Shown here: piece after piece, positions 20,773-57,113 of the stretch
How the letters are laid out: the number at the start of each line of letters is the position of its first letter
Numbering within the stretch: position 1 is the stretch's first letter
Origin: Octopus sinensis
Taxonomy: Eukaryota
Direction: 5' to 3'
Length of the DNA: 64,000 bases
NCBI RefSeq assembly: GCF_006345805.1
Contig: NC_043020.1
Coordinates: 27,528,001-27,592,000, forward strand
The notes under the pieces: generated by a model
What the model saw: the letters and a program-made list of their open reading frames with translations, nothing else
The model's database searches: none
Told to the model about the DNA's origin: nothing
Program-made: the position numbers and the translations under genes

Positions 20773-20853
20773 ATGGTATACACGGGCGAATTTTGTATGG
20801 GGTCTCGTTTGCTGACACCACTTTCAGATTTCTTCGGTTTACCCATAGACCAG
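20773..20853 (+). CDS. MBOAT2: MBOAT1/2 coding exon 1 ([27 protein letters not shown])
   Basis: aaacATGG start, 27 codons, CAG|gtatgt donor. Resembles the MBOAT2 N-terminus GS.LL.PLS....LPIDQ. Too short for the ORF track. Confidence 0.9.
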
Positions 20854-31200: not shown

Positions 31201-32358
31201 TGTTATTTTAGTTGGGTTTGTTTGTAGTCAAGAGGAGACAGCAGTAACATAGCTAAAGGTTAGGTCAGTCAAAGCTGTCCTTCATCTTCCTTTCTCTCTA
31301 GACAAAAAGCACAACAAAACACACCAAAAATTCCGCCCTGAAAACAGAATGATCTCCCTCGACCTCACCTTTAACCTATTCAATACCACCCAGCCTGAAA
31401 CTGTCCCTGCTTCTCTAATACAAGTGACCTGTTTTAAAGTAATCTAAATTACTAGGTTGAGGAAAACGCTTGTGCACCATGTTAAAATAATGATTTTTTA
31501 TGCAAGAATTTATTCAAAATCAACAAACAACTATTCTTCAAAATAAACATCATCATTTTCCACGACCTTCTACCAATGATCTGCAAGATTTCAGATTTGG
31601 TCAAAGTACCAATGTTTCAGCTTTGAATGGAAAAATTCTTGACAGGCTTCTTCAACTTCATCGAATGATTCAAATCGGTGACCTTTCATAAAGTGCTGCA
31701 TTGATCGGAAGAGACCGTAATCAGGTGGAGCAAGGTCTGGACTATAGGCTGGATGCAGCAGAGCATCCACATCGCCTAATTCTTCAATCCAGTTGCTGGT
31801 CTTTCTGGTGGTATGTGGCTTTGCATTGTCTTGTTGAAACAAAGCACGTTTTCGATGAACAATTCTTGGGTCCTTTTCAACCAGTGCATTGTAGACACAA
31901 TCAAGTTGCTTGCAGTACAGTTCAGCATTGATAGCACAACCATTAGATGTAATGTATATGACAATTTCAAACCACTTGAAAGAGATTGGAAAAACAAAAA
32001 AAACTTGAGAAATGGGTGCCACACGAATTGAATGACAACCAAAAAAAAGGCCGTTTTGAAGTGTTGTCTTTCCTTCTTTTATGCAACAAGAATGACCCAT
32101 TTCTCGACCAGATTGTGACTTGCAATAAAAAGTGGATTCTTTACGACAACTGGTGATGCTCAGCTCGGTGGTTGGATGCCAACAAGAGTACGTTTAGGCA
32201 GCTATTTAATGGAACCATGGTGATGGTGTGGCATATATATATACACATATAAATAGATGAGTGTATTTTTACCTTGTTAACAATTAACACGGAAAAATAT
32301 TTGATTTACACCTGCGTTAAACTCCATTTATTTATTCATATATATATAATCTCATGCA

Positions 32359-44318: not shown

Positions 44319-45718
44319 TGTGTAGTAAGAAAAGAGAGAGAATGTAAAAAAGAAACAGAATGTCTGTGAGGGAGAGAGAGAGAGAGAGGTAATAGTGTGT
44401 TAGAAGGAAAAGGGAGTGTGTGTGAGAGAGAGGTAGAATGTAGCCTGTGGATGAGAGAGAGAAATAGATAGAATATATTATGAGGGAGTGAGAGAGAGAG
44501 AGAGAGATAGAAGATAGTGTGAAAGAAAGAGAAAAAGAGGAGATAGTGTGTGTGAGAGGAAGAGAGGAGATATAAGGTCTGTTTTATCTGTGTGTGTGTG
44601 AGAGAGAGAGAGAGAGAGTATTTCTTTATTTACCATAAGGTTGAGAAAAAGAGGGGTCGATAGGAGGACAGGCAAAACAAACATTGGGGTCAGGGTATTG
44701 AATAAGATGAGACGAAACAACAATATGAGTAAACAAACAATTAATATATACAATTAAATGAGAATTAAACAAAGAATGAATCGGGCAGTGTAATGGGTGT
44801 CACAAAAAAGGAATATGGGTGTGTATATATTTATTTATGTATAGTCATGTGTGTGTGTATATATATACATATATCTGTGTGTGGGTGTGGGTGTATACAC
44901 TACTCTTTATATTTCTCTATGCATGTGTCTGTAATTGTAGATATATCTGGCAGCCAAGGCAATCCAGCTAGTGACCACCCCCATCATTGTGTATACCAGG
45001 AACTAGATTATTCAATGTGTTTACTTTCATGTTTAAAGTAGCAGCGTGTATAATCTGAGGGTAATTTGACTGCTATTTCTGACAGTTTGAGTATCTACAT
45101 AGAGGCTCCTTTGTTGGCCTCCATGTTCATTTCTCCATGTATATATATATATATATATATATATTTAGTGTAGGAAGAAATGGAGCTGAACGAAGATTTA
45201 ACAAAATTCCTTTTTATTATTTTCTACATATGTTTCAAAAGCTGCAAAGTCCATAATTCGGATTGAATAAGGAGTCCATTTTGCAGCCTTCTCTTCAGGA
45301 AAATCCAGGAACTTAATTCTCCAACAAAATGCACAGCAAGCTTTTCGACAAACGCTCACGAGGAGCCCTTGGAATAAATGGCACAAACTGTCTATGCTGT
45401 GCATTTTGTTGGAGAATTAAGTTCCTGGATTTTCCTGAAGAGAAGGCTGCAAAATGAACTCCTTATTCAATCCGAATTAGGGACTTTGCAGCCTTTGAAA
45501 CATATGTAGAAAATAATAAAAAGGAATTTTGTTAAATCTTTGTTCAGCTCCATTTCTTCCTACACTAAATATATAAAACTTAAAATTTCCGCACTAAGGC
45601 ACGGATTTTAGGCCCCATGGCTGTAATCTCAACCATGCTTTTTCTGTTGTGATTTTTGCTACCCAGGTGTCGGTTATCATTTGAATAATCCGTAATAAGA
45701 TAATTCATTTATCTACTT

Positions 45719-45767
<49 letters not shown>

Positions 45768-54800: not shown

Positions 54801-57113
54801 TCTGCAAGACACCGAATTTGAACTGTCTTCCTTGACTGTTACTCGAAACTCGACTATAAGATGTAACTGGCACTTAACTCCAACTGAGAACTCGTATAAA
54901 CCATTCTACAACAACTGACACATGACTCCCTGCACTGGTTGACCTCTTTTCAGTTTTTAGTGACTTGTTCTTACCACTTGTCCCGTGAGAGGGGTGTACC
55001 ATTTCCACTACAACTGGAACATAAATTGTGACTAAGGTTTAGTGGGAGATTTTAATTCAGAACTTTTGAAAACAAGACATTTGTACTACAGAGTCAGAGA
55101 TTGTTTCAGCTGGGTTGGTATCAAAAGGGTTAAGAATTGTTTCTCTATTATATATTTTAACCCTTTTGTTACCATATTTCTGTTGAGATGCTCTGTGTTT
55201 CTTTCAATTAATTTTAAATATAGCATGGGTTGGACGATTTGACTGAGGACTGGTGAACCAGATGGCTGCACCAGGCTCCAATCTTGATCTGGCAGAGTTT
55301 CTACAGCTGGATGCCCTTCCTAATGCCAACCACTCCGAGAGTGTAGTGGGTGCTTTTACATGCCACCGGCACGAGGGCCAGTCAGGCGGAGGGCCATGAT
55401 TTGAATTAGTCATACGTTATGTTGTAGCTTTGAGATTTTGGTGATGTGATTGTTTTCTTTTAGTAAGACAGTGTAGCTTACATGTAAGAGACTGTAATTA
55501 GCCAGTTTGTATTTGGCCAAATACTCCAACTCGCATGGCTCAGTGGTTAGAGCGTCGACCTTACGATCGTGAGGTTGTGAGCTCGAATCCCGGACCGGGC
55601 TGCATGTTGTGTTCTTGAGCAAGACACTTTATTTCATGTTGCTCCAGTTCACTCAGCTGTAGAAATGAGTTGCTACGTCACAGGTGCCAAGCTGTATCGA
55701 CCTTTGTCTTTCCCTTGGATAACACTGGTGGCATGGAGAGGGGGAGGCCGGTATGCATGGGCGACTGCTGGTCTTCCATAAACAACCTCGCCCGGACTTG
55801 TGTCTAGGAGGGTAACTTTCTAGGTGCAATCCCATGGTCTGTGTCGTGACCGAAGGGGGTTTCCGATTTGGCCAAAATATTGCCTTTTTGCCGGGTATGT
55901 CTTGTTTAAATGCTAAAGGGCTAAAAATCCTCCAAGCAATCCTTGTCATCTCAACATCCATGCCTTATTCAATCCCTCTTTTTCTCTCTCTTTTCTTCTT
56001 CCAGATAAATTTTATAGTGTGTCAGCTCGTGGCCCTTCTCCTGGGTATTCCATTCCGCAGAGTTTTGTCACCGAGGAAAACCAGTACGACAGTACGACAT
56101 TTGGTGGAGGTGCTTGTTGGTGTCGCACTGACTGTCTTCTGTTTCGGATAGTAAGTATTCCTTTCCAACTCTTCTTCACATTTACTCTCTTTCTCTCTCT
56201 CTCCCCTTCAATTTTTTTATTGTCTGTCTCTCTTTCTTTCTATCTTTCTCTCTTCCTTTTGTTTTTTTCTCTCTTTTTTCTGTTTTCCTTTCTTTTCTTT
56301 TTCTCTTTCTATCTCTCTCCTTATTTTTTTCTTTCTCTACCTGGGAAGGGCATCACATGGCTTGAAAAATTGTTAAGACACTGGGATTTTTTCCTACTTT
56401 TCTTAACATGAAACCAATGGCAGCCTTAATTCACAAATAAAGAATATATATATATATATATATATACTCTTTTACTCTTTTACTTGTTTCAGTCATTTGA
56501 CTGCGGCCATGCTGGAGCACCACCTTTAATCGAGCAACTCAACCCTGGGACTTATTCTTTGTAAGCCCAGTACTTATTCTATCGGTCTCTTTTGCCGAAC
56601 CGCAGACATATATATATATACATATATACGACAGGCTTCTTTCAGTTTCCATCTACCAAATCCACTCACAAGGCTTTGGTCGGCCCGAGGCTACAGTAGA
56701 AGTCACTTGCCCAAGGTGCCACGCAGTGGGACTGAACCTGGAACCATGTGGTTGGTAAACAAGCTACTTACCACTATGTAAAACAGAGTAATTAGCGAGG
56801 GATTATTAATCCAGGCGAAATACTTACTAAGCTCTCTGTTAGTACTCCAGTCTGACAACATGTTTTCAATTAGTAAATCTTTGCGTATTCTTGTGGCAGG
56901 GTCCAAGGTTATAAGTTCATCACCGAACGGGCTGATTGAGTAAACCTATCAATAACGAACCCTTAACGACTATTGGCAACAGGTGTAAGTCAAATTTACT
57001 GCAATAAACAAAAATAATTATTTATGCGCTGTCTTCTCTGCGTGTGTGTGTTGTGTTGTGTGGGTGTATATATGTATGTATATATATATATATTATATAT
57101 ATATATATATATG

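Follow-up and report, generated by a model that had tools for sequence, protein, structure and literature searches.

A hammerhead-bearing palindrome in an MBOAT intron of Octopus sinensis is probably a young insertion of a Hydra-like Penelope-like element

The window, by which we mean the whole 64,000-nucleotide stretch of the Octopus sinensis genome that was analysed (NC_043020.1, positions 27,528,001 to 27,592,000), carries two coding exons of an MBOAT gene (lysophospholipid acyltransferase 1-like) on its + strand, exon 1 at 20773..20853 and exon 2 at 56004..56150, both of which match lysophospholipid acyltransferase 1 (P0002); the Octopus label of P0002 is in keeping with the coleoid origin assumed in the sequence-only reading. 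The palindrome described below lies in the 35-kb intron between them, as the sequence-only reading had proposed when it placed it in MBOAT intron 1. Since the exons are on the + strand, this strand represents the pre-mRNA, in which the antisense arm of the palindrome is transcribed first. The window also holds an open reading frame at 31591-32193 on the - strand, which we take to resemble the C-terminal part of a mariner-type transposase.

The insertion region (45140-45764) is dominated by an inverted repeat with two arms of 181 nt each (45158-45338 and 45395-45575), 98% complementary and separated by a loop of 56 nt (45339-45394). Four mismatches distinguish one arm from the other, none of them in the catalytic core of the hammerhead motif, and relative to the parent copy L022 each arm carries two of these four differences. 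The longer, tail-less arm includes the loop and corresponds to the 3' end of a Penelope-like element (PLE; 45158..45395, - strand; L022 3349-3586, 98% identity), and it meets the shorter, tail-bearing arm (45395..45575, + strand; L022 3406-3586) with a 1-nt overlap. Only the right arm continues into a PLE tail, in which the next unit of the tandem begins and is kept for ~150 nt (45576..45723, + strand). The insertion sits between a left (TA)n target run (45140..45164), the final 7 bases of which are common to the TA-ending 3' end of the element, and a right run (45721..45764). The inverted repeat delimited earlier at 45158..45575 is real, but the true extent of the insertion is approximately 45158-45723, since the tail adds ~148 nt beyond the earlier right edge. 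AATAAA hexamers occur on the pre-mRNA strand at 45373, in the hairpin loop, and at 45515, within the duplex right after stem I.

A motif scan of both strands across the window revealed exactly two hammerhead-like folds. Scanning and folding define a predicted type I hammerhead on the + strand (45429..45514), with a 6-bp stem I (45429-34/45509-14), a core at 45435-41 and 45497-500, a 12-bp stem II (45442-53/45485-96), a palindromic stem III (45500-45507) and a predicted cut after A45508. Its mirror on the - strand (45219..45304), likewise with a 6-bp stem I and a 12-bp stem II, is antisense to the MBOAT pre-mRNA and represents the predicted lock strand. The conserved core and the three-way junction stems of a type I hammerhead are present; stem III consists of 2 bp and a 4-nt loop that together form an 8-nt palindrome, the pair 10.1-11.1 is G.U, and stem II is extended by a further hairpin. 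The Rfam hammerhead models gave no match, either at the gathering threshold or at E up to 10; Rfam returned only long-hairpin miRNA artefacts below threshold. The curated families lack so extended a stem II and so minimal a stem III. Hence, the earlier description of a canonical hammerhead on both strands holds for the core, the 6-bp stem I and the 12-bp stem II, but not for stem III, the G.U pair or recognition by Rfam.

The motif does not occur by chance, as its 28-nt 5' half has 216 exact matches in the genome (G000) and the reversed control has none. The core was intact in 123 of 134 whole arms of the family, and among young arms it varied at 4/649 sites compared with 105/6963 at the remaining positions; these small counts are explained by selection at the level of the element lineage and leave room for selection at the level of the host. 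Older subfamilies and other hammerhead families were also encountered (L010-L017, L020, L063, L064, L077, L098, L123, L133), several of them with G-C at 10.1-11.1 and C at the cut site, where the young subfamily has G.U and A.

The parent L022 was reached through the DNA flanking longer copies. It is a natural near-full copy that ends in the same terminal sequence as the window arms and contains an open reading frame for a reverse transcriptase (RT) with a C-terminal endonuclease (EN). This frame is broken by stops and a frameshift, and RT motifs and an IY..YIG nuclease were recognizable in the reading frames. For the protein, the Atlas gave leads to one GIY-YIG cluster and one RVT_1 cluster (11% of the cluster in each case); when the RT and nuclease pieces of the parent were searched against Pfam and PDB, nothing was recognized, and the only homologue found was P0001 (33%). 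The terminal repeat carries the hammerhead close to its 3' end (L022 3440-3525 of 3591). Of 90 matches to the tail, 82 share a single endpoint; in this count L001 and L031 represent one locus, and BLAST extends ~8 nt into the TA run. A possible 68-nt 5'-UTR intron (GT...AG) was noticed directly before the start codon (L022 unit 103-170, window 45667-45723), and the tail ends within it, which would be expected if unspliced RNA served as the template.

The parent is an EN+ Penelope-like element of a Hydra-like kind. As judged by protein motifs, it appears closest to the Hydra clade (PMC8557442), with which it shares DKT in place of DKG, an RW motif, GLYRDD, the absence of CCHH, CxxC and CxH around conserved E and N residues, a (TA)n target and a hammerhead. 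At the site of the RWK motif of that clade the octopus element has RWL. The CxCX5C linker between RT and EN is absent in L018, L022 and L030, for which reason we call the element Hydra-like and do not place it in Hydra. The same three copies contain instead a long in-frame Asn-rich insert with an (AAT)n core between RT and nuclease, resembling inserts in rotifer Penelopes (PMC3846280), and the octopus element measures 3.6 kb, compared with under 3 kb in the Hydra clade (PMC8557442). The N-terminus and RT of Hydra-1_Obim from Octopus bimaculoides (PMC8557442, section 11 and supplement) look alike by eye, whereas the hammerhead given for it in that supplement differs from the one described here. 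The family is a recently active Hydra-like Penelope lineage in octopus, apparently distinct from Hydra-1_Obim.

Searches for the repeat family yielded 1571 candidates (40 scored), many of them palindromic; the window locus is one young copy among hundreds in the O. sinensis genome and as a locus it is ordinary. Its anatomy conforms to the insertion form described for EN+ PLEs, namely an inverted 5'-truncated copy with a one-sided tail and a bias towards (TA)n (PMC8557442, PMC3846280), and dual hammerheads on opposite strands 100-700 bp apart were noted earlier in Schistosoma by Cervera and De la Pena (PMC4209133). Head-to-head truncated ends, a tail at one end, a type I hammerhead near the 3' end and a microsatellite target are common to these insertions and ours (PMC8557442, PMC3846280, PMC4209133). 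The octopus family differs in its tail of ~150 nt, against 30-40 in the known EN+ PLE insertions described there, and at the window locus both arms are reduced to the terminal repeat. A non-LTR retrozyme, i.e., tandem direct repeats of 150-450 bp each bearing a hammerhead, was rejected as the identity of the element, the copies being inverted or solo with variable 5' ends. We consider it very probable that the palindrome arose recently, when two PLE 3' ends, head to head and 5'-truncated, with a tail on one of them, entered a (TA)n run within MBOAT intron 1; the insertion is likely inert for the host, and the predicted lock formed by its arms is likely incidental.

The copies of the family bear on how such a mirror arises. 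In a set of 51 clean inverted junctions, part of which was chosen by tail and therefore guaranteed at least one, a tail was found on one side in 50, on both sides in none, and at neither side of the junction in 1. The longer arm was the tail-bearing one in 24 cases and the tail-less one in 20, including the window locus, and the arms were equal in 6. Overlaps of at least 2 nt occurred at 24 of 51 junctions compared with 32% in the null, a modest excess. The two arms of a copy invariably agree in their subfamily variants (up to 16 in common, with 1-3 differing), indicating that they were derived from one template, and at 5 loci a bare piece of tail is inverted against an arm. Many arms end 60-80 nt upstream of the hammerhead: a single 20-nt bin, which coincides with a palindromic site, holds 14 of the 65 arm ends, and this clustering accounts for the many palindromes with two whole hammerheads. 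Cleavage by the hammerhead as the origin of the truncated ends was rejected, as no arm among the 65 ends at the cut site and the nearest is 4-5 nt off.

We tentatively propose twin priming on one RNA molecule as the origin of PLE palindromes. In this scheme both ends of a cut (TA)n target would prime cDNA on one element RNA, one of them at the end of the tail and the other by annealing to the TA run with which the terminal repeat closes. Reverse transcription primed at the tail would continue through the stretch already copied, and the two truncated cDNAs would then be joined in the middle. Arms of either length drawn from one template, a one-sided tail and bare inverted tail pieces would all result from both target ends priming on one RNA. 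The element RNA would have to survive the first copying; PLE reverse transcriptases are not known to possess RNase H. L1 twin priming, in which one RNA is primed from both target ends, also produces an inversion, and L1 inversions are not known to duplicate sequence. The tail-only inverted octopus copies look like a product of that process, whereas the arms of the octopus palindromes overlap in content and would require the RNA to be copied twice. The scheme is consistent with the behaviour of an anole PLE, in which both target strands are cut and extended, two RT starts flank the tail, and a dimer is predicted (PMC11167929). A literature search conducted mostly without subscription journals found no proposal of twin priming for PLEs.

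Two other origins of the mirror were considered. A long inverted repeat between TA runs suggests a MITE, a non-autonomous DNA transposon that has inverted repeats at its termini and duplicates a TA target, yet length and centre vary from copy to copy, many copies are one-armed, the arms derive from the 3' end of an element that encodes an RT, and the tail lies outside one arm; the variable centres, one-armed copies and RT parent led us to reject this identity, the chance of which we regard as negligible. The alternative that a single nucleic acid strand of the same element primes itself or folds back to form the mirror deserves more weight, since self-priming on an antisense template has been proposed for rotifer Penelopes (PMC3846280), some junctions are exact palindromes, the most populated bin of arm ends coincides with a palindromic site, and both the shared subfamily variants and the one-sided tail would be accounted for. 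Fold-back of a tail-primed cDNA, however, cannot give a longer tail-less arm, as seen at 20 of 50 junctions including the window locus, nor the bare inverted tail piece of the 5 loci mentioned above; these objections concern the tail-primed version and not the antisense-template version of PMC3846280. On balance fold-back seems unlikely, and twin priming on one RNA is a better fit to the anatomy of the copies than a simple fold-back.

With respect to activity, the isolated arm is predicted to adopt the active monomer fold with a probability of 0.001. Through its palindromic stem III the motif can pair with a second copy of itself, for which an 8-bp inter-motif helix of -7.0 kcal/mol is predicted, and related hammerheads in the fetched loci retain a palindromic stem III via double changes. 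Folding also predicts that an extended stem I can form in this hammerhead. In the experiments described for other PLEs, single minimal hammerheads gave no cleavage (PMC4209133), dimers cleaved weakly (PMC4209133, PMC6765202), and the anole PLE ribozyme required protein (PMC11167929). The octopus motif shares with the dimer-cleaving hammerheads of PLEs and amphibian retrozymes a full core, a 2-bp stem III and a palindromic loop (PMC4209133, PMC6765202, PMC7229834), but it differs from them in its 12-bp stem II with a further hairpin, in the G.U pair at 10.1-11.1 and in lying outside any tandem array. Given its short palindromic stem III, the hammerhead is predicted to cleave solely as a dimer, within tandem RNA of the element, so that a lone intronic copy would cut barely, lock or no lock; as some invertebrate retrozyme hammerheads cleave well as monomers (PMC7229834), we only infer this low activity. 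Same-strand hammerhead pairs 1-4 kb apart were seen at L069, L079, L093, L098 and L113 and are candidate dimer-active pairs, some of which may be local duplications or assembly artefacts.

Folding predictions support a strong lock. Imposing the hammerhead stems would cost 106 kcal/mol, for the full hairpin as well as for the nascent transcript, so that the lock is predicted to form first and to sequester the ribozyme fully, in agreement with the original expectation that the antisense arm is made first on either strand and buries the hammerhead in ~180 bp of double-stranded RNA.

The question of whether such a lock is needed was addressed in two samples of copies. The first comprised 40 copies selected by tail alone, 27 of them inverted. 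Two whole hammerheads were found in 10 copies, one partly covered in 5, one uncovered in 14 (counting L061, the far end of which lies outside the fetched DNA and which is probably double) and none in 11, 9 of them inverted. Thus 9/27 inverted copies carry no whole hammerhead, and 14/29 hammerhead-bearing copies have no antisense cover. The second sample, the first 100 of the 216 exact matches, represented 84 loci. Opposite-strand pairs within 3 kb numbered 13, all 13 head to head with the antisense first (hand count; 5 seen as loci). Of 60 single-match loci, 49 were uncovered; cover was partial at 7, 3 were double and 1 had no hammerhead, and 7 further single-match loci gave 5 uncovered and 2 double; the remaining 4 loci were left out. 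Fourteen of the 49 uncovered loci are one insertion in a dispersed duplication, and after collapsing them 41/67 are uncovered. This solo 3' fragment lies inside a segment of more than 9 kb duplicated at ~95% identity on several chromosomes (L079, L083, L086, L096, L112, L116, L117, L118, L120, L124, L129, L130, L132, L134).

An exon screen of 89 loci, which drew on 109 candidates with flanking splice signals and on 40 ORFs picked by hand from the 150 ranked highest, assigned just three uncovered copies to host genes; its sensitivity is low, as the Pfam search missed MBOAT exon 2, and its composition score ranked the true MBOAT exons poorly. At L099 an intact, uncovered sense hammerhead (L099:4547-4632, G000:C5:21572446) lies in a ~19-kb intron that splits the halves of a paired-type homeodomain (exons at L099:1896 and L138:2117). 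A short inverted arm at this locus misses the ribozyme, and the cost of the fold is 5.2 kcal/mol. The opposite strand of L099 bears a hammerhead of another family. The two other copies are antisense to their genes, one in a polycystin-like gene with a REJ domain (L092/L142) and one beside an adenylate cyclase exon (L065), where the downstream adenylate cyclase exon was looked for and not found. An OTU-domain ORF was observed near L082.

The sequence-only reading had suggested that the lock allows such insertions to persist in introns without cutting the pre-mRNA. If a free hammerhead cut the pre-mRNA, intronic sense copies would survive mainly when covered, and in line with this idea the predicted lock is strong and formed first, the opposite-strand pairs among those first 100 matches are uniformly antisense-first, two of the three unlocked gene-placed copies are antisense, and Xenopus introns are poor in tandem retrozymes (10.64898/2026.07.22.740005). 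The head-to-head order, however, follows from 5' truncation and occurs also in the inverted copies that lack a whole hammerhead, 42-44% of Xenopus retrozymes are still in introns (10.64898/2026.07.22.740005), and single minimal PLE hammerheads failed to cleave in the assays of PMC4209133. Inversion regardless of the ribozyme, the many uncovered copies and the intact, unlocked, sense copy in a homeobox intron (L099) argue that the lock is not required for intronic persistence, so that claim is not upheld; we regard an adaptive lock as improbable, while the three gene-placed copies are too few to test orientation bias and a weak genome-wide bias may exist. The literature search, again mostly without subscription journals, found no proposal of an antisense lock for PLEs. 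Still less credit can be given to an ADAR-tuned switch in which editing of the duplex would free the ribozyme and regulate MBOAT pre-mRNA, and which we judge highly improbable. The predicted 181-bp pre-mRNA hairpin is a likely ADAR substrate if the intron is transcribed, and non-neural editing in coleoids targets repeats in introns and UTRs (PMC9068888). Even in the most favourable case, with only the lock arm edited, conversion of 10-100% of its 64 adenosines would leave 96-104 kcal/mol with inosine read as G and 44-99 kcal/mol with inosine non-pairing, and the suggestion that editing modulates the lock therefore fails, at least 44 kcal/mol remaining with all 64 adenosines non-pairing. Five core adenosines lie within the same duplex and would be targets too, the + strand of the window offers no second (partner) hammerhead, and the genomic copies have no A-to-G strand excess (25/5317 A compared with 25/5983 T-to-C). 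The contigs of four out of 24 sequencing runs, X15, X16, X17 and X9, included none that spans the insertion, and the run guessed to be RNA shares its letter differences with the other three, i.e., they are paralogue variants. Intronic inverted Alu pairs, which are edited by ADAR (PMC526178), resemble the octopus palindromes as long intramolecular pre-mRNA duplexes derived from retroelements, with the difference that a single octopus insertion event makes both arms and the duplex is near perfect from birth.

A lock that protects the host and is tuned by editing is unnecessary to explain this locus, and the lock is likely an incidental by-product of the way the element integrates and not a host need. 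The formation of tandem and inverted PLE insertions has been described as an open question (PMC8557442), and the copies of the octopus family constrain it. If twin priming is true, the family would be a natural record that settles how the inverted insertions of PLEs are formed, and each such insertion would seed a ready-made long double-stranded RNA in host introns. The family also plants near-perfect hairpins in the introns of an animal that practises A-to-I editing heavily.
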